The notes: a model not told the origin generated them from the sequence alone. Positions 29,547 to 58,250 are shown, numbered from the stretch's first letter. The stretch: DNA of 64,000 nt from an uncultured Clostridia bacterium (GCA_934130355.1 CAKOXV010000005.1:18690-82689), one strand, 5' to 3'. Numbers and translations are program-made.

Positions 29547-31583
29547 ATGAAAATGAAAAAATGTGATATTATTATACCTATTTACAACTCACCAGAATGG
29601 GTAAAAATGTGTGTATATGCACTATTCAAAAACACACCAGAAGAATATATTGGAAAAGTAATTTTAATGAATGATAATTCTAATGAATTAACATGTAATT
29701 GTATAGAAAACTTAAAAAGAAAATATCCTGAAAAAATAGAAGTATACAAAAATGAAACAAATTTAGGTTTTATAAAAAATGTTAACAGAGGATTAGAAAA
29801 AACAACAGCAGAATATGTTTTACTTTTAAATACAGATTGCTTAGTATCAACAAACACTATACCAAAATTAATGGGACATGTTGAAAGAAATCCTAAAATA
29901 GGGTTAATATGTCCAATATCAAGTAATGCAGCAAACATATCATTAGACATATTTGAAAACTATAGTTATATGCAAATGAATGACTTGTTATATGCAAATT
30001 TTAAAGACCAAAACTTTGATGCATGTACAGTTGTAGGAAATTGCTTATTAATAACAAGAGAATGTATAGAAAAAGTTGGTGGACTAGATGAAGCTTATGG
30101 AATGGGATATGGAGATGAAACAGACTACCAATTCAAAGCACATGAAAAAGGATTTGAAGCAAAAGTTGCAATAGACACTTATGTATTCCATAAATCAGAA
30201 GTTTCATTTGGAACAAGTAAAGACAAACAAGCTAAAGTAGAAAAAAATAGAAAAATCTTTTTTGAAAGATGGGGAAAACAATACAATGAAAAAATGGCTG
30301 AATATGTAAAAAATGACCCTATAAAATATATAAAAGAAAATCTAAAAATAGATAAAAAGCCTGAACCTGAAGTATTATTTTTCTTACCAGACATACACCA
30401 AAATGCTGGTGGAGTACACATTGTAGTAGATATAGTAAATTACTTAAATATAAATGGAGTATTTGCAAATATTTTAACAGAAAGAATGCATAGTTATGAT
30501 GAAATAATGTTATTTGCACCATCATTTATGAAAAACATATCAAGTATAAAACCAAAAGCTATAGTAGGAACAGTATATCCAAGTATGTTTTTCTGTAACA
30601 CAATAGGTAAACATTATGACATACCAGTAGTAAACTTTATGCAAGGATATGAACCATGTTTTGAAAATGGAAGACCTTTTGGATGGGCAGAATTAGCATG
30701 TAAGAGTAGCCAAAATATATTAGCTATATCAGAATTCTTAAAAGATAAATGCAAAAACAATTTTGGAAAAGAAGCAACAGTAATATCAAATGGAATAAAT
30801 GCAGACTTATTATATAATAATAATGTACAAACAAACAAAGTAAAAAGAATAACAATGATTTTTAGAGATAATTATGCAAAAGGAGACTTTATTCTTACTG
30901 AGATATTAAAACAATTAACATTAAAAGATTATGAACTAGAAATAAACATTGTTCACATGGCAGATATAATATTCCCAATAAACAATAATTCAAAAGTAAA
31001 AATAAATGCTATAAAAGGACCTGTTACAAGAAGACAAATTTCAACATTATTAAATGGTTCAGATATATATGTAGATGCATCATTAATGGAAGGGTTTGGA
31101 TTAACAGCATTAGAATCAATGGCAGCAGGAGTTGTACCAATAGTTTCTGAATCATTTGGAATAGGAGAATATGCAAAAGATGAAGAAAACTGTTTTGTTA
31201 TCAGAGAAGTCAACAATGCAGACAAATATATGGAAAAAATAGAAAAACTATTGTCAGATGATGAAATGCTAAAAAATATGAAAACAGAAGCACAAAAAAC
31301 AGCCTTAGAATTTGATTTTGACAACAAAGTGGACAAATATATAGAATACTTTAAAAATGTAAAAAAAGAAGAAATAAAACTAACTGAACAAGAAGAAGAA
31401 AAAATAAAAGAATGGGTTATAAGTGATGACAAGATTTTTAAAAGAAAACAACCAGAAACAACAATAGATCAAAATCCTTATGTAAGTCCAAAAAGAAAAT
31501 TATATATAAAATTTTTAGGTTTATTCCCAAGAGGACTAAAAACGAAAGTAAAAAATTTCTTAAGAAAACTAATAAACGAATAA
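29547..31583 (+). CDS. Bifunctional glycosyltransferase: N-terminal GT2 (GT-A) plus C-terminal GT4 (GT-B) domain.
   Basis: N-terminus 'CDIIIPIYNSPEWV...MNDNS'. C-terminus 'EGFGLTALESMAAGVVPIVSESFGIGEY...ENCFVI' (the E-x7-E GT4 motif). Confidence 0.8.
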   Translation: MKMKKCDIIIPIYNSPEWVKMCVYALFKNTPEEYIGKVILMNDNSNELTCNCIENLKRKYPEKIEVYKNETNLGFIKNVNRGLEKTTAEYVLLLNTDCLVSTNTIPKLMGHVERNPKIGLICPISSNAANISLDIFENYSYMQMNDLLYANFKDQNFDACTVVGNCLLITRECIEKVGGLDEAYGMGYGDETDYQFKAHEKGFEAKVAIDTYVFHKSEVSFGTSKDKQAKVEKNRKIFFERWGKQYNEKMAEYVKNDPIKYIKENLKIDKKPEPEVLFFLPDIHQNAGGVHIVVDIVNYLNINGVFANILTERMHSYDEIMLFAPSFMKNISSIKPKAIVGTVYPSMFFCNTIGKHYDIPVVNFMQGYEPCFENGRPFGWAELACKSSQNILAISEFLKDKCKNNFGKEATVISNGINADLLYNNNVQTNKVKRITMIFRDNYAKGDFILTEILKQLTLKDYELEINIVHMADIIFPINNNSKVKINAIKGPVTRRQISTLLNGSDIYVDASLMEGFGLTALESMAAGVVPIVSESFGIGEYAKDEENCFVIREVNNADKYMEKIEKLLSDDEMLKNMKTEAQKTALEFDFDNKVDKYIEYFKNVKKEEIKLTEQEEEKIKEWVISDDKIFKRKQPETTIDQNPYVSPKRKLYIKFLGLFPRGLKTKVKNFLRKLINE

Positions 31584-31595
31584 AGGAGAAATAAA

Positions 31596-33164
31596 ATGAA
31601 AAATAAGAAAATTTATATTCCAATAATAATAATTGCAATAGCTATAATATTTTTCTCTTATGCACCTGTAATAACATTTGACACATCACATTATTTGTGG
31701 TTAGTAAACATGTTATCACCAAATGCAGCTTTTGCAGATTGGGATATAGCAAGAGGACTAGTATTTCCATTAATGATATATGCTTCAACAATTATATTTG
31801 GAGCAGGCTCAGATGGTATTTTAGTAACAATGTTTATAATGTATATGACAATGATAAGTTTTGTATACCTGACATTTAAAAAAGCAATCAAAGACTTCAA
31901 AGTATTTGAAAATGTAAGAAACAGAATTATATTAGGAGTACTTGTAAGCATACTAATTATATTTAATCCAATTGTATTTGGCTATTATCACGTATTATTA
32001 ACAGAATTTGTAGGAATGACATTAGCAGTTGTAATGACATATTTATCATGGGATTGGATAGACTTTGATTTTAAAGATAACAAGAAAAAATATATAATAT
32101 ATACTTTAGTTTTTTCAATATTAACAGCATTTGCATGGAGTTTAAAACAACCTTATGTAAGTTGTGTAATGTTTCCAATATTAGTAGCATCATTAATTGC
32201 AATAATTAGAAAATTCAATGTAAAACAAGTAATACAGAGAATTGTCACAATTATAGTATGTATTATAATGTTAATAATTAGTATAGTAATATGGAATAAA
32301 ATCTTAGAATTTGGACATGTTTCAATGCAAGAAGACAGAACATCAGAAAGCTTTTTAAGTAATGGAATAATAGATGGAATAACACAACTTGAAGAAACAG
32401 GAATTAATAATATAAAAGAAATAGAAATCAGTGAAAAAGATCAAAAAGAAATTGAAAATATAGCAAATGGAACATCAAAATACAAAAACTATAAATTATT
32501 CAAAAATAAAAATGAAAATTCAAAAGGAATGGTATTATTCTCAAAAGAAGAAAACCCATCAACAGGTGAATCAATAAAATTCTGGTTTAAAACTTTAGGA
32601 ACAACACCATCAACAATAATAAGAAGTTATATAAATAACTATTTATGTACAATTAATATATTTAAAATCACATTTACAGGACCAGCATCAGAAGTAACAA
32701 CAGAATTAAACTTATTTGGAGCTGCTGAAAATGAAGCAATTAGTTATAAAATATATAGAGACTTAGACTCAAATGTATTTCCAACATTAGAAGGATATGA
32801 GCCTTTTGTAGAACCATATAAATCAAAACAAGAACCAATAAAAATAGTAAATGTAACAATGAAAGCATTAGGCAGATTTAGCACAATGTGTGCAAAAGTA
32901 GGTTTCTTAATATTACCAATAGTACTAATATGGGTAATAGTAGTTACTATAAAAAATAGAAAAGAAACTAACAAACACAAACTTTATGATTTATTAATAG
33001 TATTATTAGGATTTAGTTATTTACATGTTCTTATGCACATAGTATTGGGAGCTTGCATAGACAGATACACAGTACCTGCAATAGTTCCAATGTATACTTC
33101 ATATATAATTATCGGATATATGATATTTGAAAACAGGAAGAATAAGACTAAACTACCAAAATAA
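31596..33164 (+). CDS. Polytopic membrane protein, a putative GT-C-type glycosyltransferase or polymer-modifying enzyme.
   Basis: Eight or more TM helices at the N-terminus with an early extracytoplasmic 'FDTSHY' acidic loop, a soluble domain, and three C-terminal TMs. Sits within the glycan locus. Confidence 0.45.
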   Translation: MKNKKIYIPIIIIAIAIIFFSYAPVITFDTSHYLWLVNMLSPNAAFADWDIARGLVFPLMIYASTIIFGAGSDGILVTMFIMYMTMISFVYLTFKKAIKDFKVFENVRNRIILGVLVSILIIFNPIVFGYYHVLLTEFVGMTLAVVMTYLSWDWIDFDFKDNKKKYIIYTLVFSILTAFAWSLKQPYVSCVMFPILVASLIAIIRKFNVKQVIQRIVTIIVCIIMLIISIVIWNKILEFGHVSMQEDRTSESFLSNGIIDGITQLEETGINNIKEIEISEKDQKEIENIANGTSKYKNYKLFKNKNENSKGMVLFSKEENPSTGESIKFWFKTLGTTPSTIIRSYINNYLCTINIFKITFTGPASEVTTELNLFGAAENEAISYKIYRDLDSNVFPTLEGYEPFVEPYKSKQEPIKIVNVTMKALGRFSTMCAKVGFLILPIVLIWVIVVTIKNRKETNKHKLYDLLIVLLGFSYLHVLMHIVLGACIDRYTVPAIVPMYTSYIIIGYMIFENRKNKTKLPK

Positions 33165-33168
33165 GGAT

Positions 33169-33198
33169 TTGAAAGTAGCAACCTCCGTGTGTTATAAT
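33169..33198 (+). promoter_or_regulatory. Sigma-A promoter with an extended -10 (TTGAAA-18-TGtTATAAT) for the GH25 gene. The spacer carries an arm that is complementary to the RBS region downstream.
   Basis: Hexamers as listed. Inverted repeat CAACCTCCGTGTG / CACAGGAGGTTG. Confidence 0.55.
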
Positions 33199-33235
33199 AT
33201 TCTTAAGGGATATATAGACACAGGAGGTTGTTATT

Positions 33236-35344
33236 ATGTTTTATGCAAAGATAACAAAAATAATGCTTTTTCTATTTATAATATTTGGAGTAATAATACT
33301 TTTTGATAATCCAGTTACAGCCCAAAGTAATTACACAGCCAGAACGTGGATTGATAGCCCCAAAAGTGAAGATATATCTTTTGAAAAAATGGTTGTATCT
33401 GGTTGGAAACTAAGTAATGACAAAGATTCTAAACTAAAAATATTAATAGATGACAAAGAACAGAAGATAGAAAACTTAACAACTAGAAGTAGAGCAGATG
33501 TAATAAGTACTATACCGGGATATGGCGGAATAGAACTAAACCCAGAACCAGGATATTCAGCAACAATAGATATCTCAGGAATTAAAAGAGGATATCACAC
33601 ATTAAAAACACAAATAATATCTGCTGAAGGAAAAATATTAACAGAACAAAGTAGAAAAATATACATAGAATCATATAAAGCCAGAACATATATAGACAGT
33701 CCCAAACAAAATGCAAATATAGAAGGAACAAAATTAGTTGTACAAGGATGGATAATGTCTGATGATTTATCTAGAGATGTAAAAATATTTTTAGACGACA
33801 AAGAACAGCAAATTACACAAACAACTACAAGAACTAGACCAGATGTAATAAGTGCTGTACCAGGATATGGTGGAATTAATAAAAATCCGGAACCAGGATA
33901 TTCATCAACAATAGATGTATCAAAAATAAAAAGTGGAAAATATAAATTAAAAGTACAAGTCATATCAAGAAATGGTGAAATATTGACTGAACAAACAAGA
34001 GATATATTTATTGAAAATTATAGAGCAAGAACTTATATAGATTCTCCAAAACAAGAAGCGGTTATAGAAGGGGCAAGTTTGGCTGTACAAGGATGGTATA
34101 TGAGTAGTGAAAAAACTAAAAATTTAAGAATATTAATAGATGGTCAAGAACATGAAATTATTCAAACTACAACAAGACCAAGACCTGATGTAATATCAGC
34201 AGTACCAGGTTATGGAGGTATCGAAACAAATCCAGAACCAGGATATTCAGCAACAATAGATATCTTAAAAATCAAAGATGGAAAACACAATTTAAAAGTA
34301 CAAATTTTATCAAGTGATAATGAAGTAATGGCAGAAGATGAAAGACAAATAATAGTCCAAAAATATAAAGCAAAAACATATATAGATTATCCCAAAGGAA
34401 ATAGTCAAACAAAAGATACTTTAACAGTATCAGGATGGGTAATGTCAACAGATGCAAATAGAAAAATAAATATTTACTTAAATGGAGAAAAACAAATAAT
34501 AAATAATATTACGACAAGGCCAAGACCTGATGTAATATCAGCTGTTCCAAGTTATGGAGGAATTGATACAAATGCTCAACCAGGATATTCAACAACAATT
34601 GATGTTTCCAACAAAGAGGATGGGAAATATACATTGAAAGTTCAAATCGTTTCAAGCACAGGAGAAGTTTTAACTGAAGATACAAGACAAATCTATATAC
34701 ATATAAATTATGAATTTGGCATAGATGTCTCAACACACAATGGAACAATAGATTGGGGAAAAGTAAAGCAAAGTGGAGTAAAATTTGCAATAATAAGAGC
34801 AGGATTTAGAGGCTATGGAAAAGCTGGAACATTAGTACAAGATGCAAAATTTGTGGAAAATATGAAAGGTGCTATATCTAATGGAATTGATGTTGGAATA
34901 TATTTTTATTCACAAGCAATAAATACTCAAGAAGCTATTGAAGAAGTTGAAATGATATTAAAATTGATAAGAGAAAATGGATTTTCAAAGAGTATTGCAT
35001 TACCAATAATAATAGATACAGAAGAATCATCAGGAAGAGCTGACCAAATATCAATAGATCAGAGAACAAAGGCTGTAAAGGCATTTTGTGACAGGGTAGA
35101 ACAAGCAGGTTATAAATCAATGATATATTCTAATAAATATTGGCTTTCTGCTAAGCTAAATATGAATGAATTGTCTCAATATGATTTTTGGCTAGCACAT
35201 TATACTGGCACAAATGACCCAATAAATAATCCGTCTGATTACAAGGGGAGTTATCAAATTTGGCAATATAGTTCAACAGGTAGAGTTGATGGAATTAATG
35301 GAAATGTGGACTTAAATATTAAATATAAGAAGTATTCTTTCTAA
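33236..35344 (+). CDS. Secreted GH25 muramidase (lysozyme) with five N-terminal GW-containing repeats of about 110 aa each.
   Basis: Signal peptide. Five copies of 'ARTYIDSPK...V.GW.MS...RPDVISAVPGYGG...NPEPGYS.TID'. C-terminal 'FGIDVSTHNGTIDWGKVK...GIDVGIYFYS' GH25 motifs. Confidence 0.8.
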   Translation: MFYAKITKIMLFLFIIFGVIILFDNPVTAQSNYTARTWIDSPKSEDISFEKMVVSGWKLSNDKDSKLKILIDDKEQKIENLTTRSRADVISTIPGYGGIELNPEPGYSATIDISGIKRGYHTLKTQIISAEGKILTEQSRKIYIESYKARTYIDSPKQNANIEGTKLVVQGWIMSDDLSRDVKIFLDDKEQQITQTTTRTRPDVISAVPGYGGINKNPEPGYSSTIDVSKIKSGKYKLKVQVISRNGEILTEQTRDIFIENYRARTYIDSPKQEAVIEGASLAVQGWYMSSEKTKNLRILIDGQEHEIIQTTTRPRPDVISAVPGYGGIETNPEPGYSATIDILKIKDGKHNLKVQILSSDNEVMAEDERQIIVQKYKAKTYIDYPKGNSQTKDTLTVSGWVMSTDANRKINIYLNGEKQIINNITTRPRPDVISAVPSYGGIDTNAQPGYSTTIDVSNKEDGKYTLKVQIVSSTGEVLTEDTRQIYIHINYEFGIDVSTHNGTIDWGKVKQSGVKFAIIRAGFRGYGKAGTLVQDAKFVENMKGAISNGIDVGIYFYSQAINTQEAIEEVEMILKLIRENGFSKSIALPIIIDTEESSGRADQISIDQRTKAVKAFCDRVEQAGYKSMIYSNKYWLSAKLNMNELSQYDFWLAHYTGTNDPINNPSDYKGSYQIWQYSSTGRVDGINGNVDLNIKYKKYSF

Positions 35345-35346
35345 AC

Positions 35347-35376
35347 TAAAAGGCTCATTTTATTTGAGCCTTTTTA
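35347..35376 (+). terminator. Rho-independent terminator after the GH25 gene.
   Basis: Stem AAAGGCTCA...TGAGCCTTT followed by TTT. Confidence 0.7.
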
Positions 35377-35400
35377 CTATTAAAATTAATTCATATATTT

Positions 35401-35476
35401 TGCTGTATATATATTAAAAATAATGGAAAGTTTAGCTTGTCCAAAATTTGGAATGTTTTTTAATATATATACAGCA
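35401..35476. repeat. Perfect 20-bp-stem hairpin (TGCTGTATATATATTAAAAA / TTTTTAATATATATACAGCA) enclosing a 36-nt loop with the conserved motif 'GAAAGTTTAGCTTGTCCAAAATTTGGAATG'. Probably a deletion derivative of the element family at 59753-60088.
   Basis: The motif plus 'TTTTTAATATATATAC' is identical to 60010-60055. The left arm interior 'TATATATTAAA(AA)TAATGGA' matches 59786-59808. Confidence 0.75.
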
Positions 35477-35546
35477 AATATATTGAATTTATTTAACTTT
35501 AATGATAAAATTCAAAAAGAATAAATATAAAATAGGAGGAATAGAC

Positions 35547-36242
35547 GTGAAAACGCTAATAGTAGTACCTGCATACAACGAAGCATTAAACATAGAAAAA
35601 ACAATAGCAGACCTAAAACAAAACGCTAATGAATATGAATATATAATAATAAATGACTGTTCAAAAGACAATACAAAAGAAATATGTGAAAAAAATGAAT
35701 TTAATGTAATATCATTGCCAGTAAACTATGGACTAACAAGTGCTATACAAATAGGCATGAAATATGCTTATGCAAATGATTATGATATAGTAATACAATT
35801 TGATGGAGATGGACAACATCAAGCACAATATTTAAAAGAATTAGTAAAAGCAATAGAAGAAGATGGAAATGATATTTCAATTGGTTCAAGATTTGTAGAA
35901 AAGAAAAAGCCATTTACAATGAGGATGTTTGGAAGTAATATAATACAATCAACAATAAAATTAGTAACAGGGAAAAAGATTACAGACCCAACTTCTGGGA
36001 TGAGAGCATACAACAAAAAAGCAATAAAAGAATTTGTGACAAATTCAAGCTTAACTCCAGAACCAGATACACTTGTATATATGCTAAAAAAAGGAATGAA
36101 AATACAAGAAGTACAAGTTGAAATGAAAGAAAGAGAATTTGGAGAAAGCTATTTAAATGCAGTAAAATCAATGGAATACATGTTAAGTATGATGTTTTCA
36201 ATCATATTTATCAGAGTATTTACTAAAAAAGGAGGCAAATAA
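35547..36242 (+). CDS. Family 2 glycosyltransferase (soluble, DPM1-like; GTG start).
   Basis: 'LIVVPAYNEALNIEKTIADL...IINDCSKDNT...DGDGQH' motifs. RBS AGGAGG before the GTG at 35547. Confidence 0.8.
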   Translation: MKTLIVVPAYNEALNIEKTIADLKQNANEYEYIIINDCSKDNTKEICEKNEFNVISLPVNYGLTSAIQIGMKYAYANDYDIVIQFDGDGQHQAQYLKELVKAIEEDGNDISIGSRFVEKKKPFTMRMFGSNIIQSTIKLVTGKKITDPTSGMRAYNKKAIKEFVTNSSLTPEPDTLVYMLKKGMKIQEVQVEMKEREFGESYLNAVKSMEYMLSMMFSIIFIRVFTKKGGK

Positions 36243-36243
36243 A

Positions 36244-36576
36244 ATGTCACTTATACTAAGAATTATACTAATTGTATGTTCATTAATATCATTTATATTA
36301 TGTATAAAAAAAGTAAAGCAATCTAAATTAAGAGTAGCAGATTCAATAATATGGCTTACAGGAAGCTTTTGCTTAATATTAATGAGTATATTTTCAAATG
36401 CAGTACAATGGATAGCAACAAAATTAGGATTTATAGCGCCTGTAAACTTCGTATTTTTAGTAGTAATAGGATTCCTACTAATAGAAAATTTTATGAACAA
36501 TTTAAAAATATCAATGTTAAATGAAAAGGTAAAAAATTTAAATCATTATATAGCACTAAAAGAATATGAAAAATAA
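36244..36576 (+). CDS. DUF2304-like small membrane protein (partner of the preceding GT2).
   Basis: 110 aa, three TM helices. Conserved pairing with DPM1-like GT2 genes. Confidence 0.6.
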   Translation: MSLILRIILIVCSLISFILCIKKVKQSKLRVADSIIWLTGSFCLILMSIFSNAVQWIATKLGFIAPVNFVFLVVIGFLLIENFMNNLKISMLNEKVKNLNHYIALKEYEK

Positions 36577-36590
36577 AAGGAGTACTGATT

Positions 36591-37634
36591 GTGGAAAAAA
36601 TAAAAGTAACTATAGTTGTACCAGTATATAAAGTAGAGAAATACTTAAGAAGAAGTATGGATTCATTAGTGAATCAAACATTAGATGGAGTTGAAATTAT
36701 ATGTATAAATGATGGTTCACCAGATAATTCTTTAAATATATTAAAAGAGTACAAGGAAAAATATCCGGACAAGCATATTGTGATAATTGATAAACAAAAT
36801 GAAGGAACTTGGAAAGGACGTTTAGATGGAATTGCAAAAGCAACAGGAGAATATATAGGTTTTGTAGATTCAGATGATTATGTTGCTTTAGATTATGCTG
36901 AAAAATTATATAATGCAGCAAAAAGTTCAAATGCAGATATAACAGTATGTGGATTTAAAAGAGTTAATTCAGAAACAGGAAATGCATATTCTACTGAAAT
37001 GAATCAATTTGCGGGTAAAATAATTGACATGGACAAAAATCCAGAAGATATATTATCAATAAATACAGCATTATGGAATAAGCTATGTAAAACAGAATTA
37101 GTAAAAAACATAAGGATATTACCTAAAAATCCTAAAATTTTCGAAGATATGATATGTATATTATTAATATACATGAATACTAAAAAAATTACATTTATAG
37201 AAGATAGCTTATATTATTATATGGTAAGGCCTGATTCAACAATGGGAACAATAAAAAAAGAATATGTAGAAAGTACACAAAATGCCTTATTAGAAGTTAA
37301 GAAAATTTATGCTAAAGAAAATGCCACAAAAGAACTTTTATCAGTAATAGATGCAATGGCATTTATACATTTAGGAGTTTCACTAATGATTAAAGTTTCT
37401 GAAGACAAAACAAGTAATTTTAAAGAGGAATTAAAAAAGAGTGAAAAATATTTAAATGAAAATTTTCCAACATGGAAAACAACTCAATATCTAAATTTAT
37501 TTTATTGCTTAAAACATAAATGCAATGTTAAACCAGCAATAATAAGAATAATTTATAAACTAAGATTATTTAGGCCATTTATAAATGTTTACAACTTCAT
37601 GATAAATAAACTAAAAGTAGATATAAAATGGTAG
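36591..37634 (+). CDS. Family 2 glycosyltransferase (GTG start).
   Basis: 'VTIVVPVYKVEKYLRRSMDSLVNQTLDGVEIICINDGSPDNS'. Confidence 0.8.
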   Translation: MEKIKVTIVVPVYKVEKYLRRSMDSLVNQTLDGVEIICINDGSPDNSLNILKEYKEKYPDKHIVIIDKQNEGTWKGRLDGIAKATGEYIGFVDSDDYVALDYAEKLYNAAKSSNADITVCGFKRVNSETGNAYSTEMNQFAGKIIDMDKNPEDILSINTALWNKLCKTELVKNIRILPKNPKIFEDMICILLIYMNTKKITFIEDSLYYYMVRPDSTMGTIKKEYVESTQNALLEVKKIYAKENATKELLSVIDAMAFIHLGVSLMIKVSEDKTSNFKEELKKSEKYLNENFPTWKTTQYLNLFYCLKHKCNVKPAIIRIIYKLRLFRPFINVYNFMINKLKVDIKW

Positions 37635-37647
37635 AAAGAGGTATCAA

Positions 37648-39876
37648 ATGAAAAAAACAACAAAAATATTATTTTTTATTTTAATATTAATATCTTTCAT
37701 AATGTTAATAAAAGTTCCTAGAAGTGTTGCAGCAACTGCAAAAACAAAGATATGGTTCGACTATCCAAAACAAGGAACAGAATATAAAAAAGAATTAAAT
37801 ATACATGGATGGGTTATGTCAGAATTAGCAGAAAAAACAGTAAAAATATATATTGATGATAAAGACATAACATCACAAATAAAATTATATAATAGACCAG
37901 ATGTAACCAAAACTGTAAAAGGATTTGGAACGGCAGAACAAAATCCACTTGCAGGATTTGATGGAACAATAGATATATCTGGATATAAAGACGGAAGTCA
38001 TAAAGTAACTGTAAAAGTATTAGAAAATGCAACACAAAATGTAATTCAAGAAAACACAAGCATAATACAAATTAAAAAATATCAAACAAAAATATTTTTT
38101 GATTATCCAAAACAATCTGAAACAGTATTTAAAACAATAAATGTGCATGGATGGGTAATGTCAGAAGCAGAAAATAAAACAGTTCAAATATTTTTAGATG
38201 ATACAGATATAACAAAACAAATAAAAAGATATGCAAGACCAGATGTAATAAAAGCAGTAAAAAATTATGGTACAGAAAAACAAAATCCACAATCAGGATT
38301 TGACGGAAATGTAGATATTTCTAAACTTACAGTTGGAAAACATGCTGTAAAAATGAAAGTAATAAATAATGATACATCAGAGACAATAGCAGAAGAAACA
38401 AGAAAAATTAATGTAAGAGATTATTATACAAAAATATGGTTTGATTATCCAAAACAAAACAATGAATATAAAGCTTCACTAAATGTACATGGATGGATAA
38501 TGTCAGAACAAGCAGACAAAATTGTAAAATTCTATATTGATAATAATGATGTAACAGAACAAATAAAAAGATATGCAAGACCAGATGTAACAGGAACTGT
38601 AAAAGGATTCGGAACAGCAGAACAAAATACACTTGCAGGATTTGACGGAACAATAGATATGTCAAAATATAAAGATGGTAAACATAGTGTAACAATAAAA
38701 GTATTAGAAAAAACAACAGAAAGAGAAATTTCTCAAAGCACTACTACATTTACAATACATAAATATGCAACAAAATTACATGTAGATTATCCACATCAAC
38801 AACAAAACAGTAAAAATGTTTTAAAAATACATGGATGGGTTATGTCAGAACAAGCAGATAAAAGTATGAAATTTTATTTGAATAATGAAGATATAACATC
38901 ACAAATAAAATTATATGATAGACCAGATGTAATAAAAGCAATTAAAAATTATGGAACAGCAGCACAAAATCCAACAGCAGGATATGATGGACAAATTGAT
39001 GTAGAAAAATTAACTGCTGGAAATTATACTTTAAAAATACAAGTAATATCAAATGTTACAAAAGAAGTATTAGAAACAGCACGAGTTCAAATAACATTAA
39101 ACAAAATACTTTTAGAAAAAGGTGTTTATGGAAAATCAGGTCTAGCAATAAAAGGTGATTATAGAGGAAGTGACCTTATATATTACAAAATAGGTGACGG
39201 AGAAAATGTATTATTTACAACATTTTCAGTACATGGATATGAAGATGAATGGGATCAAGATGGTGCAGAATTAACAAAAATAGCAGAACAATTTAAAAAT
39301 AAATTAATACAATTACAAGATAGAGAATTAGACAAAAAATGGACAATCTATATTTTCCCAATGGTTAATCCAGATGGACAAAAATATGGAACAACACATA
39401 ATGGACCAGGAAGAACAACATTATATAGTGCTGCACCAGGTCACAAGGGTGTAGATATGAACCGTTGTTGGAGTTCAAATTTTGAAGAAAAAACAAATAA
39501 TAGAAATTATACAGGACCAGAACCATTTTTAGCTTATGAAGCAAGATATTTAAGAGACTTTTTACTAAAAAATAAATCAAAAACAGGTCAAACAATACTT
39601 GTAGATTTACATGGATGGTATAATCAATCAATAGGTGATGAAGCTGTAGGAAAATATTATAGAGAACAATTAGGAATTACAAAACCACATAAAAGCACTT
39701 ATGGAACTGGATATTTAGTTGGATGGGCAAAAGATAATTTAGGAAACAAAAATTATTCTGCTAAATCAGAACTAATAGAATTAGTACCAGTAGAAAACCA
39801 AGAAGAAGTTGCTTCAAGAAGATATGGAGAAAAATACATAACAGCAACAATAAATATGTTAAAAGGAATTCTATAA
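37648..39876 (+). CDS. Secreted M14-family zinc carboxypeptidase-like cell-wall peptidase with four N-terminal repeats of the GW-containing type also found in the GH25 enzyme.
   Basis: Signal peptide. Four copies of 'KIWFDYPKQ...HGWVMSE...RPDV.K.VK.(F/Y)GT..QNP..G(F/Y)DG.ID'. C-terminus 'HGYEDEWD...PMVNPDG...GVDMNRCW' (M14 Zn-ligand and 'NRxW' motifs). Confidence 0.7.
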   Translation: MKKTTKILFFILILISFIMLIKVPRSVAATAKTKIWFDYPKQGTEYKKELNIHGWVMSELAEKTVKIYIDDKDITSQIKLYNRPDVTKTVKGFGTAEQNPLAGFDGTIDISGYKDGSHKVTVKVLENATQNVIQENTSIIQIKKYQTKIFFDYPKQSETVFKTINVHGWVMSEAENKTVQIFLDDTDITKQIKRYARPDVIKAVKNYGTEKQNPQSGFDGNVDISKLTVGKHAVKMKVINNDTSETIAEETRKINVRDYYTKIWFDYPKQNNEYKASLNVHGWIMSEQADKIVKFYIDNNDVTEQIKRYARPDVTGTVKGFGTAEQNTLAGFDGTIDMSKYKDGKHSVTIKVLEKTTEREISQSTTTFTIHKYATKLHVDYPHQQQNSKNVLKIHGWVMSEQADKSMKFYLNNEDITSQIKLYDRPDVIKAIKNYGTAAQNPTAGYDGQIDVEKLTAGNYTLKIQVISNVTKEVLETARVQITLNKILLEKGVYGKSGLAIKGDYRGSDLIYYKIGDGENVLFTTFSVHGYEDEWDQDGAELTKIAEQFKNKLIQLQDRELDKKWTIYIFPMVNPDGQKYGTTHNGPGRTTLYSAAPGHKGVDMNRCWSSNFEEKTNNRNYTGPEPFLAYEARYLRDFLLKNKSKTGQTILVDLHGWYNQSIGDEAVGKYYREQLGITKPHKSTYGTGYLVGWAKDNLGNKNYSAKSELIELVPVENQEEVASRRYGEKYITATINMLKGIL

Positions 39877-39887
39877 GGAGGAAAAGC

Positions 39888-40898
39888 ATGTCAATATTAG
39901 TTACAGGAGGTGCTGGCTACATTGGTAGCCACACCGTTGTAGAATTGATAAAAGAAGGAAGAGATGTTATCATAATTGATAATTTTTCTAATAGTAAACC
40001 GGAAGTATTAGATAAAATAAAAGAAATAACCAAAAAAGACTTTAAATTTTATGAATTAGATTATCTAAACAGAAATGAATTAGAAAAAGTATTTGAAGAA
40101 AATGACATTGAAGCAGTAATGAATTTTGCTGGATATAAAGCAGTTGGAGAATCTGTAAAAAAACCACTAGAATATTATGAGAATAATATTTCAGGTGCAA
40201 TAGTATTATTAGAAACAATGAAGAAATATAATGTAAAGAAATTTATATTTAGTTCATCAGCAACTGTATATGGCGAGCCAGAACGAATTCCAATAACAGA
40301 AGAATGCAAAACAGGTGGAACAACAAATCCTTATGGAACAACAAAATTGTTTATAGAACAAATTTTACAAGATTTATACAAATCTGATAACACATTTGAC
40401 ATAGCAATATTGAGATATTTTAATCCAGTTGGAGCAGATGAAAGTGGCTTAATAGGTGAAGAACCACAAGGAATACCTAATAATTTAATGCCTTATATTG
40501 TAAGAGTTGCATCAGGTCAATTAGAAGAATTGTCAGTATTCGGCAATGATTTTGACACACCTGATGGAACAGGTGTAAGAGATTATATACATGTAGTAGA
40601 TTTAGCAAAAGGACATATTAAAGCACTAGAAAAACTTGAAAAACAAAAGACAGGAATATATATATATAATTTGGGTACAGGAGTAGGATATAGTGTCTTA
40701 GATATGGTAAAGGCATTTGAAGAAACAACAGGAAGAAAAGTAAAATATAAAATAACAGCACGCCGTCCAGGAGATATAGCTACATGCTATTCAAACCCAG
40801 AAAAAGCAAAAAAAGAATTAGGCTGGGAAGCAACTAAAACATTAAAAGATATGTGTTTAGATTCTTGGAGATATATACAAAGCAAAACTAAAAATTAA
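39888..40898 (+). CDS. galE: UDP-glucose 4-epimerase.
   Basis: 'ILVTGGAGYIGSH' Rossmann motif, YxxxK catalytic motif, and homology along the full length. Confidence 0.9.
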   Translation: MSILVTGGAGYIGSHTVVELIKEGRDVIIIDNFSNSKPEVLDKIKEITKKDFKFYELDYLNRNELEKVFEENDIEAVMNFAGYKAVGESVKKPLEYYENNISGAIVLLETMKKYNVKKFIFSSSATVYGEPERIPITEECKTGGTTNPYGTTKLFIEQILQDLYKSDNTFDIAILRYFNPVGADESGLIGEEPQGIPNNLMPYIVRVASGQLEELSVFGNDFDTPDGTGVRDYIHVVDLAKGHIKALEKLEKQKTGIYIYNLGTGVGYSVLDMVKAFEETTGRKVKYKITARRPGDIATCYSNPEKAKKELGWEATKTLKDMCLDSWRYIQSKTKN

Positions 40899-40916
40899 TA
40901 AAAAAGGAAGAAAAAA

Positions 40917-41852
40917 ATGGATAAAATTTCAGTAGTTGTTTCATGCTATAATGAGGAAAAAGCATTACCATTATTTTATAAAGAAATGGAAAGAGTAAGA
41001 GAGCAAGATTTTGGAGAATCTGTCGAATTTGAGTATATATTCGTAAATGATGGGTCAAAAGATCAAACATTAGATGTAATAAAACTATTAAGGTCTCAAG
41101 ATTCAAAAGTAAAATATATATCTTTTTCAAGAAACTTTGGAAAAGAAGCTGCAATGTTAGCAGGTCTAGAAGCGGCAACAGGAGATTATATAACATTAAT
41201 GGATGCAGATTTACAAGATCCACCAGCATTATTAAAACAAATGTATAATGCTATTATTAATGAAGGCTATGATTCTGTTGGAACTAGAAGAGTTACAAGA
41301 AAAGGTGAACCACCAATAAGAAGCTTTTTTGCCAGAATGTTTTATAAAATAATAAATAAAATATCAGACATAGAAATGGTTGATGGTGCTAGAGATTATA
41401 GATTAATGAAAAGGCAAGTTGTAGATGCAATTATTTCATTAAAAGAATATAATAGATATTCAAAAGGACTATTTAGTTTTGTTGGATTTAATACTAAATG
41501 GATTGAATATGAAAATGTAGAAAGAGTTGCAGGAGAGACCAAATGGTCATTCTGGAAACTTTTCAAATATGCATTAGAAGGAATAACAGCATTTTCAACA
41601 ACACCATTAATATTATCATCTATATTAGGACTATTATTTTGTGGAATTGCATTTTTAGCAATAATATTTATAATAGTAAAGACTTTAGTATATGGTAATC
41701 CAACATCAGGTTGGCCATCACTTGTATGTATAATAGTGTTTGTTAGTGGTGTTCAATTATTCTCTATAGGTGTAATTGGACAATACTTATCAAAAACATA
41801 TTTAGAAGTAAAAAACAGACCAATATATATTATAAAAGAAAAAGAGTTTTAA
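40917..41852 (+). CDS. GtrB/ArnC/CsbB-like GT2: polyprenyl-phosphate sugar transferase with two C-terminal TM helices.
   Basis: 'ISVVVSCYNEEKAL', 'DADLQDPP', and a C-terminal membrane anchor. Confidence 0.8.
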   Translation: MDKISVVVSCYNEEKALPLFYKEMERVREQDFGESVEFEYIFVNDGSKDQTLDVIKLLRSQDSKVKYISFSRNFGKEAAMLAGLEAATGDYITLMDADLQDPPALLKQMYNAIINEGYDSVGTRRVTRKGEPPIRSFFARMFYKIINKISDIEMVDGARDYRLMKRQVVDAIISLKEYNRYSKGLFSFVGFNTKWIEYENVERVAGETKWSFWKLFKYALEGITAFSTTPLILSSILGLLFCGIAFLAIIFIIVKTLVYGNPTSGWPSLVCIIVFVSGVQLFSIGVIGQYLSKTYLEVKNRPIYIIKEKEF

Positions 41853-41905
41853 AAAGAAACTTTTTTGAGAAAGGGATAAAAATGAAAATAAGGAGAAAAG
41901 ATATA

Positions 41906-42262
41906 ATGAAAGTAGTATTTGTAATGATTTATCTAGTATTAACAGTATCAGGCTTAATTTTGATGAAAAAAGGTGGAAATGCAGGAAAAATAAAAATTGC
42001 AGCAGGAGAATTTAATTTAAGTATAAGCTTAGTAAGTTGTCTTGGATTTTTATGTTATATATGTAGTTTTTTACTATACACAAGAATAGTAATGATGTTT
42101 GAAAATTTAAGTTACATAACACCGATTTGCACAGGACTATCACAAATAATGATATTACTTGCATCATGGTTAGTACTAAAAGAAAAAATATCAGGTTTAA
42201 CAATTGGAGGAGTTGCATTAGTAATTGTTGGAATTGTAATAATGAACTTAAAAATACAATAA
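41906..42262 (+). CDS. Small four-TM DMT/SMR-like protein (ArnE/ArnF- or GtrA-like flippase subunit).
   Basis: 119 aa, four TM helices, immediately downstream of the GtrB/ArnC-like gene. RBS AAGGAG. Confidence 0.55.
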   Translation: MKVVFVMIYLVLTVSGLILMKKGGNAGKIKIAAGEFNLSISLVSCLGFLCYICSFLLYTRIVMMFENLSYITPICTGLSQIMILLASWLVLKEKISGLTIGGVALVIVGIVIMNLKIQ

Positions 42263-42310
42263 GGTTTATAGGTAAATCCAAACAAAAACCTAAATATCTA
42301 CAAGTAAGGA

Positions 42311-43306
42311 TTGAAGAAAATGTTTAAATTTGGTCAAGATATAGGAATAGACTTAGGAACAGCAACAGTAATAGCTTATGTAAAAGGTAAAGGTGTAGTT
42401 TTAAGAGAACCATCTGTTGTTGCAGTAGACAGTAACACAAAAGAAGTTTTAGCAGTTGGACAAGAAGCCAGAAGAATGCTTGGAAGAACACCAGGAAACA
42501 TAGTAGCAACAAGACCTCTAAGAGAAGGTGTAATTTCAGATTATACAGTAACAGAAAAAATGTTAAAATATTTTATCAATAAAATAAATGGAAAAACAAT
42601 ATTTGCACCAAGAACAATGATATGTATACCATCAAGAGTAACAGAAGTTGAGAAAAAAGCAGTAATAGATGCAGCAACACAAGCAGGAGCAAGAAAAGTA
42701 TTTCTTATAGAAGAACCAATTGCAGCAGCAATAGGAGCAGGAATAGATATAGCAAAACCATGTGGAAATATGGTAGTAGATATTGGGGGAGGAACAACAG
42801 ATATAGCTGTAATTTCTCTTGGAGGCTCAGTTGAAAGCACATCACTAAAAGTAGCTGGAGACAAATTTGATGAATATATTGTTAAATATATAAAGAAAAA
42901 ACACAATATTATGATAGGAGAAAGAACAGCAGAAGATTTAAAAATAAATATAGGCTGTGTATATCCAAAAATTCAAGATACAGAAATGGAAATTAGAGGA
43001 AGAGATTTAACAACAGGACTTCCAAAAACAATAACAGTATACTCAAGTGAAATGTTAGAAGCAATGATTGAACCAGCAATGATGATAGTAGATGCAGTAC
43101 ATTCAGTATTAGAAAAAACACCACCAGAACTTTCTGCAGACATCAGTGATAGGGGAATTTATATGACAGGTGGAGGTTGTCTAATAGATGGATTAGACAA
43201 ATTATTACAAGAAAAAACAGGAATAAATGTTATGATTGCAAATGATGCAGTATCTTGTGTTGCACTTGGCACAGGAAAAGCTTTAGATAATTTAGATGTA
43301 TTATAA
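42311..43306 (+). CDS. mreB: Rod-shape determining actin homologue (MreB/Mbl family).
   Basis: 'DIGIDLGTATV', 'VDIGGGTTDIAV', and the full-length actin-like ATPase fold. Confidence 0.9.
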   Translation: MKKMFKFGQDIGIDLGTATVIAYVKGKGVVLREPSVVAVDSNTKEVLAVGQEARRMLGRTPGNIVATRPLREGVISDYTVTEKMLKYFINKINGKTIFAPRTMICIPSRVTEVEKKAVIDAATQAGARKVFLIEEPIAAAIGAGIDIAKPCGNMVVDIGGGTTDIAVISLGGSVESTSLKVAGDKFDEYIVKYIKKKHNIMIGERTAEDLKINIGCVYPKIQDTEMEIRGRDLTTGLPKTITVYSSEMLEAMIEPAMMIVDAVHSVLEKTPPELSADISDRGIYMTGGGCLIDGLDKLLQEKTGINVMIANDAVSCVALGTGKALDNLDVL

Positions 43307-56325: not shown

Positions 56326-58218
56326 ATGGAAAAATACCTAAATGAAGCAATTATCGGAAACAAGAATATGTTAGTAACTTTTTCTGAAAATGGGGAAATG
56401 TTAAGATTATCATATCCAAATAAAGATAATAGACAATATTTAAAATATTTTCATACAGGAGTAAAAATAAACGATTCAGAACTAATAAAAATGAATGAAG
56501 ATATTAATAATAATTATGTACAATATTATGACACAGATACAAATATATTAAATACAGAAATAACAAATACATATTTCAACCTAAAAATTTTACAAACAGA
56601 CTTTGTATCAATAAAAGAAGACATCTTAATAAAAAGATATACATTCATAAATGAAAATAATATTGGTCTAGACACAAAATTTTTAATACATTCAGAACTT
56701 TTATCAGACCAAAACAATTTTGTTAGTGGAATGAGAACAGATACAGGAATGATACAATATGCTCATGACTTTTCAGTTGCAACATTTTCAAAAACACATA
56801 AAATTTTGGATGTTCAAATTAATGGAAGTTCTGAAAACATCAATTCAGGAGTTATTGGTGGAAAAGATTATATTGGAATGTCAAAAGATTCAAGTGTAAG
56901 CTATGACCTTGGAATAATAGAACCAGGAGAGAAAAAAATTCTTGAAATTTGTATATATATTGATGAAAACAAAAAAACAATGCAAGCAATAGAAGACGAA
57001 ATTGAAAGAATCAGAAAAATAGACTTAAACAAAGAATATTCAAATGTAAAATCATATTGGAGAAAATATGTAAAAGAGCATAATGGATTAGGATTAAAAG
57101 AACCAGAAAATAGTTACGAGGAAAAAATTCAAAGCATATACAGAAGAAGTATATTACTATTTCCACTATTAACAAATCAAACAACAGGAGGAATAATAGC
57201 AGCACCAGAAGTAGATGAAAATTTAACACAATGTGGAAGATATGCATATTGTTGGCCTAGAGATGCAGTATTTATTACAAAAGCATTAGACATTTTAAAA
57301 ATGACTAAAGAAACAGAAAAATTCTATAGTAATTTCTGCAGAATGACACAAAGCAAAAATGGAATGTGGGAACAACGTTTCTACACAGATGGAAGGTTAG
57401 CACCATGCTGGGGATATCAAGTTGATGAAACAGCAAGTGTAATATATGGAGTATACTCACATTACGAATATACTCAAAATGAAAAATTCTTAAAAGCCAA
57501 TTTATACATGTGTGAAAAAGCAGTAGATTTCTTAAAAAGATATGTTAAAGACATATTTGCTCAAACAGGTATTTATGCACCAAGTTATGATTTATGGGAA
57601 GAAAATGAAGGTATACATCTATATTCTTTATCAGCAATTTTCGCAGCATTTGAAGCAATGCTTAAAATATATAATGTATTAGGTGATAACCTTTCAGATT
57701 TTGAAAATAACAGACTAAAAGAAGAAAAAGTAAACAAAAATATCCGAGAAATAAAACAATTACAAGTAGAACTAAAAAAATATATTGAGGAAAATTTTTA
57801 TGATGAAAACAGAAAATCTTTTGTAAGAAATAAAGAAGATAAAAGAATAGATATAAGCTTACTTGGAGCAGTGTATCCATTTAAAGTATTTTCAACAAAA
57901 GAAAAGAAAATATTAAATACAGTAGATAATATCAATTTGACGATAAGAACATATACAGGCGGATATCAAAGATATGAATATGATGGTTATAGAAATGGAG
58001 CTCCATGGCCAATTGCAAATTTATGGCTAACATTATATTATTTAGAAAATGGAGAAAAGAAAAAAGCCAAAGAAACATTTGACTTTGTGCTAAAAACAGT
58101 TGGAAAACATAGTTATTTAGGAGAACAAGTAGATAATAAAACATTAAAACCAAATTGGGTTATTGGTTTAGGTTGGACTCATGCAATGTTTATCATTGTG
58201 CTTGAAAAAATGAGATAA
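56326..58218 (+). CDS. Glycoside hydrolase family 15-like (glucoamylase-type alpha/alpha-6 barrel) protein.
   Basis: 'CWPRDA', 'GYQVDETASVIYG', 'LWEENEG' and 'GAPWPIANLWL' resemble GH15 catalytic motifs. Confidence 0.6.
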   Translation: MEKYLNEAIIGNKNMLVTFSENGEMLRLSYPNKDNRQYLKYFHTGVKINDSELIKMNEDINNNYVQYYDTDTNILNTEITNTYFNLKILQTDFVSIKEDILIKRYTFINENNIGLDTKFLIHSELLSDQNNFVSGMRTDTGMIQYAHDFSVATFSKTHKILDVQINGSSENINSGVIGGKDYIGMSKDSSVSYDLGIIEPGEKKILEICIYIDENKKTMQAIEDEIERIRKIDLNKEYSNVKSYWRKYVKEHNGLGLKEPENSYEEKIQSIYRRSILLFPLLTNQTTGGIIAAPEVDENLTQCGRYAYCWPRDAVFITKALDILKMTKETEKFYSNFCRMTQSKNGMWEQRFYTDGRLAPCWGYQVDETASVIYGVYSHYEYTQNEKFLKANLYMCEKAVDFLKRYVKDIFAQTGIYAPSYDLWEENEGIHLYSLSAIFAAFEAMLKIYNVLGDNLSDFENNRLKEEKVNKNIREIKQLQVELKKYIEENFYDENRKSFVRNKEDKRIDISLLGAVYPFKVFSTKEKKILNTVDNINLTIRTYTGGYQRYEYDGYRNGAPWPIANLWLTLYYLENGEKKKAKETFDFVLKTVGKHSYLGEQVDNKTLKPNWVIGLGWTHAMFIIVLEKMR

Positions 58219-58221
58219 AAA

Positions 58222-58250
58222 AAGTATGCTTTTGCATACTTTTTATTTTT
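58222..58250. terminator. Bidirectional terminator between the GH15 gene (+) and murC (-).
   Basis: Stem AAAGTATGC-tttt-GCATACTTT with T-runs on both sides. Confidence 0.65.

Follow-up and report, generated by a model that had tools for sequence, protein, structure and literature searches.

In LytC of Streptococcus pneumoniae (PDB 2ww5), tandem wall-binding repeats at the N-terminus precede a C-terminal GH25 domain; these choline-binding repeats are units of ~20 residues that form a beta-hairpin solenoid and bind phosphocholine on teichoic acid. The GW modules of Listeria surface proteins and autolysins (InlB, Ami, IspC), repeated units with a conserved Gly-Trp, are SH3-like domains of ~80 residues that bind lipoteichoic acid, and the Pfam family Big_7 (PF17957), a beta-sandwich with no defined ligand, is familiar mainly from chitinases and adhesins. 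In C. difficile, CWB2 domains serve as tandem non-covalent anchors on wall hydrolases and surface proteins and are encoded near a wall-glycopolymer locus, as set out in PMC4973711 and PMC5065235, and Acp of Clostridium perfringens combines a signal peptide and ten SH3b repeats with a GH73 domain, according to PMC8470621. In Vibrio cholerae GbpA, the Ig-like middle domains 2-3 bind the producer's own surface (PMC3257281). Here we compare with these systems two co-directional open reading frames in a 64,000-nt window of DNA from an uncultured Clostridia bacterium (GCA_934130355.1, CAKOXV010000005.1:18690-82689), which an initial annotation had placed correctly and had identified as GH25 and M14 enzymes, identities that Pfam backs:

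24259..42262, + strand throughout: wall-glycan locus around both genes (Pfam, TM counts, intergenic gaps), in the order GT2, ABC-2 permease, GT2, 400-aa ABC ATPase, 417-aa unknown, GT2+GT1 fusion, 522-aa polytopic membrane protein, the GH25 gene, GT2 + DUF2304, GT2, the M14 gene, GalE-type epimerase, and GtrB-like GT2 + small EamA-like membrane protein
33236..35344, + strand: gene for a putatively secreted GH25 muramidase, 702 aa (ORF; Pfam GH25 E = 1.4e-35)
33236..33322, + strand: predicted lysozyme signal peptide, ~residues 1-29, ending in VTA before QS (translation read directly; hydrophobic segment from residue 1; cleavage site placed by the AXA rule)
33329..33673, + strand: lysozyme repeat 1, residues 32-146 (HMM stretch i-E = 2.9e-47)
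33674..34018, + strand: lysozyme repeat 2, residues 147-261 (HMM; unit modelled with AF2, pLDDT 93.7)
34019..34363, + strand: lysozyme repeat 3, residues 262-376 (HMM and motif positions)
34364..34705, + strand: lysozyme repeat 4, residues 377-490 (HMM and motif positions)
34721..35296, + strand: GH25 catalytic domain, residues 496-687 (Pfam Glyco_hydro_25)
37648..39876, + strand: gene for a putatively secreted M14-type metallopeptidase, 742 aa (ORF; Pfam Peptidase_M14 E = 1e-14)
37735..38079, + strand: peptidase repeat 1, residues 30-144 (HMM and motif positions)
38080..38421, + strand: peptidase repeat 2, residues 145-258 (HMM and motif positions)
38422..38763, + strand: peptidase repeat 3, residues 259-372 (HMM and motif positions)
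38764..39105, + strand: peptidase repeat 4, residues 373-486 (HMM and motif positions)
39106..39873, + strand: M14-like catalytic region, residues 487-742, with HGYE, NRCW and DLHGW motifs (Pfam M14 at residues 557-656; carboxypeptidase A4 alignment)

The sequences point to a GH25 N-acetylmuramidase and, on a partial profile match, an M14 zinc peptidase, both of them secreted hydrolases of peptidoglycan. The GH25 gene is preceded by an AGGAGG ribosome-binding site, and its product, which has a single N-terminal hydrophobic segment, is laid out as a signal peptide, four Ig-like repeats and a C-terminal GH25 domain that matches the Pfam profile end to end (positions 1-180 of 180). The nearest solved relatives of this domain are LytC (the closest, E = 1.8e-16), cellosyl (1jfx) and Psm (4krt), with E values from 1e-16 to 1e-11, and the GIDVS, IIDTEE and VDLN segments read from the translation are what we take, by analogy with Cpl-1 and cellosyl, to be the catalytic Asp/Glu sites. 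The M14 gene, which lies 13 bp downstream of a GT2 gene and 11 bp upstream of galE, encodes the same layout with a C-terminal M14-like domain. Its Peptidase_M14 match spans profile positions 82-183 of 286, a carboxypeptidase A4 match (E = 2.5e-5) aligns NRCW (NR..W) and DLHGW (DLH), and HGYE, an HxxE-type zinc-ligand motif, was read directly from the sequence; no counterpart of the catalytic Glu270 was identified. Both enzymes would be secreted and their signal peptides cleaved.

The shared module reported in the initial annotation is real: the N-terminal regions of the two proteins are 35.7% identical over 493 residues (BLASTP E = 1.9e-93), far beyond chance, with repeats 45-66% identical inside one protein and 27-40% identical between lysozyme and peptidase. 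The motifs described earlier, V.GW.MS and RPDVISAVPGYGG..NPEPGYS.TID in the lysozyme and RPDV.K.VK.[FY]GT..QNP..G[FY]DG.ID in the peptidase, are all present in the sequence. The lysozyme, however, has four repeats rather than the five first counted, with GW dipeptides at residues 56, 171, 286 and 400 (period 115 aa, array at residues 32-490); the HMM also picks up a fifth stretch, but with i-E = 75 this is noise. The count of four in the peptidase stands, with GW at 54, 168, 282 and 396 (period 114, array at residues 30-486). An HMM search found no further repeat-carrying protein within the window. The repeat regions have near-neutral pI values (7.1 and 8.9), which counts against a wall-binding role, as binders of anionic polymers are often strongly basic. 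A chance or compositional repeat, a misassembly or duplicated sequence is suggested by the AT-rich composition only (about 27% GC), and we regard this explanation as virtually impossible and refuted by the BLASTP E value, a confident AF2 model, 1,622 homologous clusters, and the recovery of both sequences, identically, on independent metagenome contigs.

The structure prediction that had been proposed for a single repeat yields a confident Ig-like beta-sandwich with AlphaFold (pLDDT 93.7), in which an insertion of ~20 residues forms two short helices (residues 56-61 and 67-70) and bears the RxDV...NPxPG[FY] motif. A didomain model (pLDDT 90.4, pTM 0.68) separates the domains by 3 residues, and neighbouring repeats are contiguous and linker-free (median gap -1). 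The near-invariant signature of the repeat reads I-D-x-P, G-W, R-x-D-V, Y, N-P-x-P-G-[FY] and G-x-H, and its conservation over 562 repeats is 99% for G, 98% for W, 98% for R, 99% for D, 91% for V, 87% for Y, 98% for G and 98% for F/Y. We found no close match for the repeat among solved structures, and its structural neighbours are mostly Ig-like spacer or accessory modules without known ligand, which weighs against a wall-binding role.

Among sequence families, the kinship lies with Big_7, with which the repeat has in common the beta-sandwich, the IDxP start and the 'vDG' and 'G.H.l.v' motifs. As whole proteins the lysozyme and the peptidase score 39.7 and 30.6 bits against a gathering score of 24.1, with the best stretches in lysozyme repeat 4 (residues 383-469 vs profile positions 5-70) and peptidase repeat 3 (residues 265-350), whereas scanning the eight repeats one by one gives a Big_7 match at E <= 0.01 for just two of them (best 9.6e-6). 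At 114-115 residues the repeat is longer than Big_7 (~70), and the Big_7 match covers 87 residues for 66 profile positions; the difference from the 70-position model consists of ~20 extra residues, folded as the two inserted helices that carry RxDV...Y...NPxPG[FY], together with the invariant GW. The same GW/RxDV/G[FY] signature occurs in strong Big_7 scorers such as P0134 (130 bits, 4 stretches) and P0055 (192 bits, 6 stretches), and the top Big_7 scorer among repeat-family members, P0120, reaches 240 bits over 8 stretches. The module had been called unrecognised, and this holds in part only: six of the eight single repeats fall short of E <= 0.01, but the whole proteins pass the Big_7 cut-off, and neither fold nor family is without precedent. 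Our literature search found no paper on the repeat subfamily. The initial annotation was right to set the module apart from CWB2, SH3b, LysM, ChW and choline-binding repeats, as neither protein matches these Pfam families (CW_binding_1 for the last), nor SLH or GW, at E <= 1. The resemblance it had noted to Listeria GW modules is coincidental and was rejected, since no GW family matched at that threshold and the repeat folds as an Ig-like sandwich, not SH3-like, so that the likeness is limited to the dipeptide. GbpA offers a precedent for Ig-like domains with a surface-binding role, but the repeat resembles it only weakly (NCBIfam PRK13211, with E = 1.1e-7 across 40 residues; Foldseek 2xwx, E = 1e-5, TM 0.51; a faint precomputed GbpA_D3 match), far below family level, and GbpA differs in its Gram-negative host, single copies and lack of a hydrolase partner. 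Taken together, the repeat very probably constitutes a distinct Ig-like/E-set subfamily at the margin of Big_7, a distant relative of it, that is tied to peptidoglycan hydrolases.

The module is widespread beyond the two proteins, as the initial annotation had suspected: an exhaustive search recovered 1,622 protein clusters with the repeat at E <= 1e-3 and 300 at <= 1e-30, nearly all members being metagenome-derived, with 2-10 tandem copies per protein among the best 150 hits. We tallied partner domains in 151 proteins, these 150 plus the fragment P0001, and found a catalytic domain in at least 128, of the peptidoglycan-hydrolase type in 125. GH25 is the most frequent partner counted (59 proteins), followed by Amidase_3 (30, 18 of them also with GH73), GH73 without amidase (20), M14 (10), C39-like (5), S8 (2) and GDSL (2), with C39-like and GDSL together in one protein, which puts 127 proteins in the classes named. 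The common architecture is a signal peptide, contiguous repeats and then a peptidoglycan-hydrolase catalytic domain. In uncultured Clostridia, wall hydrolases are almost the only proteins on which the repeat occurs. No match was found in 50,697 phage records, an IMG/VR pattern scan found no repeat match and BFVD gave generic Ig folds only, a weak negative in view of the sparse phage sampling for such uncultured hosts; this lack of endolysin matches counts against a wall-binding role, as genuine wall-binding domains are often common to them.

An N-terminal hydrophobic segment is present in 121 of the 151 proteins and an LPXTG-like motif in just 2, so that in most members the repeats are the only candidate anchor. 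A few also contain SH3_3 or ChW, in which case something other than the repeat could be the anchor. This distribution bears on whether the array is an inert stalk, a ligand-free semi-rigid rod of ~4 nm per domain that sets catalytic reach or aids folding or stability, with conserved Asp/Asn residues that possibly bind Ca2+. The signature residues may indeed have a structural role in packing the inserted loop, or they may bind Ca2+. However, as most members lack another retention device, a secreted autolysin with an inert rod would have nothing to tether it; in spacer Ig domains conservation is usually limited to core positions, whereas here subfamily-specific polar and aromatic residues of the inserted loop are near-invariant across all catalytic contexts; and generic stalks spread over adhesins and other surface proteins, whereas this family is almost confined to peptidoglycan hydrolases. 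We therefore consider an inert spacer possible, though on the unlikely side.

Both genes are embedded among glycosyltransferases, as first described, with ABC-2 exporter, GalE and GtrB-like genes in the same run. They are co-directional with their neighbors, with gaps of 11-157 bp, and no intrinsic terminator is predicted from 24135 to 42500. The hydrolase genes are putatively co-transcribed with the glycan genes. This setting had led to the proposal that the repeat is a lectin for the glycopolymer made by the surrounding locus, like CWB2 for PSII in C. difficile, a precedent described in PMC4973711. The neighborhood does recur: in 12 of the 13 loci examined, spanning five catalytic types, polysaccharide-synthesis genes adjoin the repeat-protein gene, and a Ricin-B lectin occupies the equivalent slot in one homologue. 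As a control, however, we looked at three close repeat-less GH25 homologues, and two of them (ChW-GH25 and RicinB-GH25), with ChW or Ricin-B lectin in the slot of the repeat, also lie inside similar glycan loci. The linkage therefore belongs to the hydrolases and does not single out the repeat; placement in a glycan locus is a trait of the hydrolase lineage, whichever accessory module it carries, and the C. difficile-like neighborhood stands as an observation without being specific to the repeat. In addition, gene content varies among the family loci (ABC vs Wzx export, RgpF, heptose, rhamnose, pyruvyl transferase, MBOAT), while signature residues remain 98-99% invariant, which is easier to reconcile with a conserved ligand or a structural motif than with a polymer peculiar to one strain, and the lysozyme and peptidase repeats, though encoded in one locus, are alike only in the family-wide signature. 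Specificity for the polymer of the locus is thus not supported, and we judge it improbable.

In architecture, the repeat fills the slot of the wall-binding domain in Gram-positive autolysins, in agreement with the targeting role first suggested for it. LytC shares the order of tandem repeats and GH25 domain, but the repeats here are 115-residue Ig-like units; Acp shares the signal peptide, many tandem accessory domains at a comparable repeat count and a peptidoglycan hydrolase, but its SH3b fold is not Ig-like, and the co-occurrence of SH3_3 with the repeat in P0134 indicates that the two modules are not equivalent by sequence. CWB2 differs in fold and family, in having a glycan-locus linkage that here is not specific to the repeat, and in that its PSII binding is experimentally proven, whereas binding by the repeat is putative.

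Given tandem copies across secreted peptidoglycan hydrolases of such differing types (GH25, Amidase_3, GH73, M14 and C39-like), we favor, at somewhat better than even chances, the reading that the array is a non-covalent wall-retention or targeting module of both hydrolases. Several weak carbohydrate-binding sites, putatively built from the conserved Trp, Tyr, Phe, Arg, Asp and Asn residues, would jointly keep the enzyme bound to the wall, while the domains, as a semi-rigid rod, would bring the catalytic domain into position on peptidoglycan; the candidate ligands are peptidoglycan or a conserved feature of a secondary polymer. By analogy, the array would most likely do for these enzymes what choline-binding repeats do for LytC, SH3b for C. 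perfringens Acp and CWB2 for the Cwp proteins of C. difficile.

Two co-directional hydrolase genes in the AT-rich window (~27% GC), both at the coordinates where the initial annotation had placed them, encode proteins with tandem N-terminal repeats.

33236-35344, + strand: ORF A, the lysozyme, 702 aa, with a full-length Pfam GH25 match (residues 496-687, E = 1.4e-35)
37648-39876, + strand: ORF B, the peptidase, 742 aa, with a partial Pfam Peptidase_M14 match (residues 557-656, E = 1e-14)

A good ribosome-binding site precedes both genes, and in both products a single hydrophobic segment at the N-terminus leads into an AXA-like site (VTA/QS and SVA/AT, one per protein). In their N-terminal regions the two proteins are 35.7% identical across 493 residues (BLASTP E = 1.9e-93), and the identical two proteins and their locus were recovered on independent metagenome contigs, which together exclude an artefact. 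GW dipeptides recur at positions 56, 171, 286 and 400 of ORF A (period 115) and at 54, 168, 282 and 396 of ORF B (period 114), and from this spacing we count four repeats in each protein. The initial annotation had likewise given the peptidase four repeats and quoted motifs that are all found in the sequence, but the five that it counted in the lysozyme are one too many: the fifth stretch, with an HMM i-E of 75, was rejected as noise. Repeats are 45-66% identical inside one protein and 27-40% across the two, with 13 columns invariant over all eight, and a six-frame HMM scan of the 64-kb window found no further copies. Elsewhere in the window, two paralogous giant secreted proteins of 1672 and 1128 aa (1791-6809 and 7093-10479, + strand) carry 10-12 DUF285 repeats plus LRR-like stretches, with nearly identical signal peptides and C-termini (...GGNGTT.NSSY.DATYARID..GTPGYFTQK), and contain neither the Ig-like repeat nor a recognised wall anchor.

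Judged by profile matches and structure prediction, the repeat is an Ig-like domain at the margin of Pfam Big_7 (PF17957, 'Bacterial Ig domain'). The whole proteins score 39.7 (A) and 30.6 (B) bits against a gathering score of 24.1, and when repeats were scanned singly, 2 of 8 reached Big_7 (best E = 9.6e-6). The repeat exceeds the 70-position Big_7 model by ~45 residues, ~20 of which form an insertion inside the matched core (87 residues vs 66 profile positions). AlphaFold2 predicts one repeat (pLDDT 93.7, pTM 0.84) as a beta-sandwich of nine strands with two short helices, at 56-61 and 67-70, that fall within the RPDV...GYGG...NP segment. Structural neighbours of this model include the sulfite oxidase C-terminal domain, CbhA Fn3-like modules, a porphyran-binding CBM, chitinase N-terminal domains and GbpA. 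Sequence-profile searches of the PDB with both repeat profiles returned nothing convincing, the sole match being a marginal one to DUF4955 (8jiy, E = 6e-4); the family-wide profile returned none, and these searches found no solved structure of any family member. The module had been called unrecognised, and this stands insofar as the CWB2, SH3b, LysM, ChW, choline-binding, SLH and GW profiles match neither protein at Pfam E <= 1, but not with respect to Big_7, whose gathering score both whole proteins exceed. Listeria GW modules, to which the dipeptide had been likened, are SH3-like, whereas the repeat here is predicted to be an Ig-like beta-sandwich; with a different fold and no GW profile match, kinship with them is ruled out. 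Other proteins from the repeat-family search score strongly as Big_7, specifically P0134 (130 bits) and P0055 (192 bits), whose repeats have the same GW/RxDV/G[FY] signature, and P0120 (240 bits), and the repeat family therefore grades into Big_7 as a continuum.

The family is large. Exhaustive HMMER searching of 1.84 billion cluster representatives found 1,622 repeat-family clusters (counted at 50% identity) at E <= 1e-3, 693 at <= 1e-10 and 300 at <= 1e-30, so the scant yield of word-indexed protein searches (one match with repeat profile A1, five with A3, built from 38 diverse repeats) reflects a limit of the index and not rarity. Across 562 repeats the near-invariant signature comprises I-D-x-P, G25 (99%), W26 (98%), D41, R54 (98%) separated by one residue from D56 (99%) and V57 (91%), Y64 (87%), N70, G74 (98%), F/Y75 (98%), D80, G87 (98%) and H89 (75%). 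Members come almost all from metagenomes only, and the sole named NCBI record, MDD3223937.1, is an 'Ig-like domain-containing protein [Clostridium sp.]' and leads to Clostridium sp. MAGs. Scanning genome contigs with repeat profile A2 retrieved four MAG loci from Clostridia or Bacillota, and scanning with the full lysozyme retrieved no relative. In the literature on Big_7/PF17957 and cell wall, peptidoglycan, Clostridium or autolysins we found no description of this subfamily, and neither Big nor Ig-like domains figure in a survey of autolysin architectures (PMC8051824). The repeat is a real, large and uncharacterised subfamily with a putative function; its fold is known, its Pfam family loosely defined and its architectural role familiar, and in kind it is unsurprising.

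The domains that accompany the repeat were tallied in 151 proteins (the best 150 matches plus the fragment P0001) by masking the repeats and classifying the remainder, with representatives of each class confirmed with Pfam.

Partner domains of the repeat among 151 proteins
GH25: 59/151
Amidase_3: 30/151, 18 of those also with GH73
GH73 without amidase: 20/151
M14: 10/151
Peptidase_C39_2-like: 5/151
S8: 2/151
GDSL: 2/151

The rows total 128 for 127 proteins, one having both C39-like and GDSL domains, and the 22 unclassified proteins are mostly fragment-like. An N-terminal hydrophobic segment is present in 121/151 and an LPXTG-like motif in 2/151. The near confinement of the family to wall hydrolases, most of them with no other anchor, together with a polar and aromatic loop motif kept family-wide, argues against reading the tandem Ig-like domains as a spacer with no ligand, which we consider unlikely. 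Such an inert stalk would nevertheless be consistent with the generic fold, the near-neutral pI of the two repeat regions (7.1 and 8.9) and the additional SH3_3 or ChW domains in a few of the 151 proteins. It would also fit the packing of the repeats: the best 150 of the 1,622 clusters have between 2 and 10 copies in tandem, 5 or 6 being the commonest number, and the copies adjoin without linkers (median gap -1); a two-repeat AlphaFold2 model (pLDDT 90.4, pTM 0.68) has three residues between domains. Its last support is that no phage endolysin with the repeat was found when both repeat regions were searched by tblastn, when IMG/VR was scanned by pattern, or with Foldseek against BFVD.

Both hydrolase genes lie between era-recO and mreB, within a locus (24259-42262) whose genes are all on the + strand.

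Gene order of the locus, all + strand
Part 1: GT2, ABC-2 permease, GT2, 400-aa ABC ATPase, 417-aa protein
Part 2: GT2+GT1 fusion, 522-aa polytopic membrane protein, GH25 enzyme
Part 3: GT2 plus DUF2304, GT2, M14 enzyme
Part 4: GalE-type epimerase, GtrB-like GT2 plus small EamA-like membrane protein

This gene order, the short gaps flanking the two hydrolase genes (71, 157, 13 and 11 bp) and the lack of any predicted intrinsic terminator in 24135-42500 confirm that both are embedded in a glycan locus, as had been proposed. A promoter-like site just 5′ of the lysozyme gene (33169-33198, + strand; TTGAAA-18-TATAAT with an extended -10 TG, 11/12 matches) carries little weight, because such sites are not enriched in this AT-rich region (137 found vs 139 expected from shuffles). 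Several further features were observed in and around the locus:

27078-28280, + strand: 400-aa ABC exporter ATPase with a C-terminal extension of ~220 residues without Pfam match; equivalent ATPases in related loci carry a Wzt_C glycan-end-binding domain
35502-36576 and 40917-42262, + strand: two pairs of a GtrB-like GT2 and a small membrane protein (DUF2304 and a 126-aa EamA-like protein, respectively)
31596-33164, + strand: 522-aa protein (about nine TM segments plus a large loop) that matches no Pfam family
13921-15105 (394 aa), 19876-22146 (756 aa) and 28289-29542 (417 aa), + strand: proteins lacking both Pfam matches and TM segments; an unannotated 768-aa gene of a related contig, L007, occupies the same position, upstream of era
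58243-59634, - strand: the sole long minus-strand ORF, the rest of the window being entirely plus-strand; the local GC skew falls to -0.085 over 58001-60000

The GT2/small-membrane-protein pairs and the 522-aa protein look like a three-component extracytoplasmic glycosylation system, and a comparable place in related loci is taken by YfhO, DUF2142, DUF6020 or PMT_2 proteins.

Polysaccharide-synthesis genes directly adjoin the repeat-bearing protein in 12 of the 13 loci examined, namely the window, the MAG loci L001-L004, and the loci of P0002, P0005, P0096, P0134, P0120, P0149 and P0003, with P0042 as the single exception (1/13). The linkage covers GH25, M14, Amidase_3+GH73, GH73+SH3 and S8 partners, and the linked loci include both ABC-2/Wzt and Wzx-type export. 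It is possible that the repeat reads the glycopolymer made by its surrounding locus, as the initial annotation had suggested, but two observations weaken this reading. First, among three close GH25 homologues without the repeat (catalytic domain 45-51% identical), P0204 (ChW+GH25) and P0195 (Ricin-B+GH25) are inside glycan loci and P0286 is not, so that linkage, in this small sample (2/3), is a trait of the hydrolase lineage and not of the repeat; we accordingly rejected it as evidence of repeat specificity. Second, the signature stays invariant despite highly varied gene content (RgpF, heptose, rhamnose, MBOAT, YfhO, DUF2142, PMT_2), which favours peptidoglycan or another conserved feature over a locus-specific polymer as ligand. 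In the GH25 homologues the slot of the repeat is filled by ChW, a putative wall-binding module, or Ricin-B, a known lectin, which lends indirect support to a binding role for the repeat. The glycan-embedded GH25 homologues with ChW or Ricin-B in place of the Ig-like repeat map to L015:10001-10975 and L016:10001-11053, two related metagenome loci. These arrangements suggest that these Clostridia may, as a general rule, encode a muramidase with a swappable accessory head inside their wall-glycan loci.

Taking the observed architecture, fold class, family and context together, we infer, as the most likely mechanism, that both enzymes would be exported with cleavage of their signal peptides and that the tandem Ig-like array would retain them non-covalently on the wall. 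Retention would depend on multivalent, individually weak carbohydrate contacts, to which the inserted loop would contribute its conserved aromatic and polar residues, and the array would double as a semi-rigid arm for presenting the catalytic domain. Three systems are the closest functional analogues. Pneumococcal LytC, the nearest solved catalytic relative of ORF A, has the same order, its choline-binding repeats at the N-terminus being followed by a GH25 domain at the C-terminus. C. perfringens Acp, which is described as combining ten SH3b repeats with GH73, is the second and differs in having SH3b where the proteins here have Ig-like repeats. C. difficile CWB2 proteins, reported to bind PSII (PMC4973711), are the third. 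We tentatively speculate, with some doubt, that the repeat may amount to an undescribed CBM/CWB family, a novel lectin-type module for cell-wall binding that tethers GH25, GH73, Amidase_3, M14, C39-like and S8 hydrolases to a secondary wall glycopolymer in uncultured gut Clostridia, and that it might be routine for wall-glycan loci to carry genes for their own autolysins, fitted with exchangeable glycan-reading heads (repeat, ChW or Ricin-B), which would couple wall remodelling to whether the correct polymer is present.

Should the repeat be merely a spacer, the finding would be ordinary. If it binds the wall, it would constitute a large uncharacterised anchoring family of ~1,600 clusters, almost all from uncultured Clostridia, and would join the few Gram-positive wall-binding modules (LysM, SH3b, CWB1/2, SLH, GW and ChW). 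It would then aid the annotation of autolysins in gut metagenomes, where the present label is merely 'Ig-like domain-containing protein', and could serve as a basis for cell-targeting probes or chimeric lysins. The possibility of a new wall-binding family in gut Clostridia makes the repeat worth an experiment, and hydrolases with interchangeable heads in wall-glycan loci offer a testable lead on how autolysis and secondary-polymer synthesis may be coupled.
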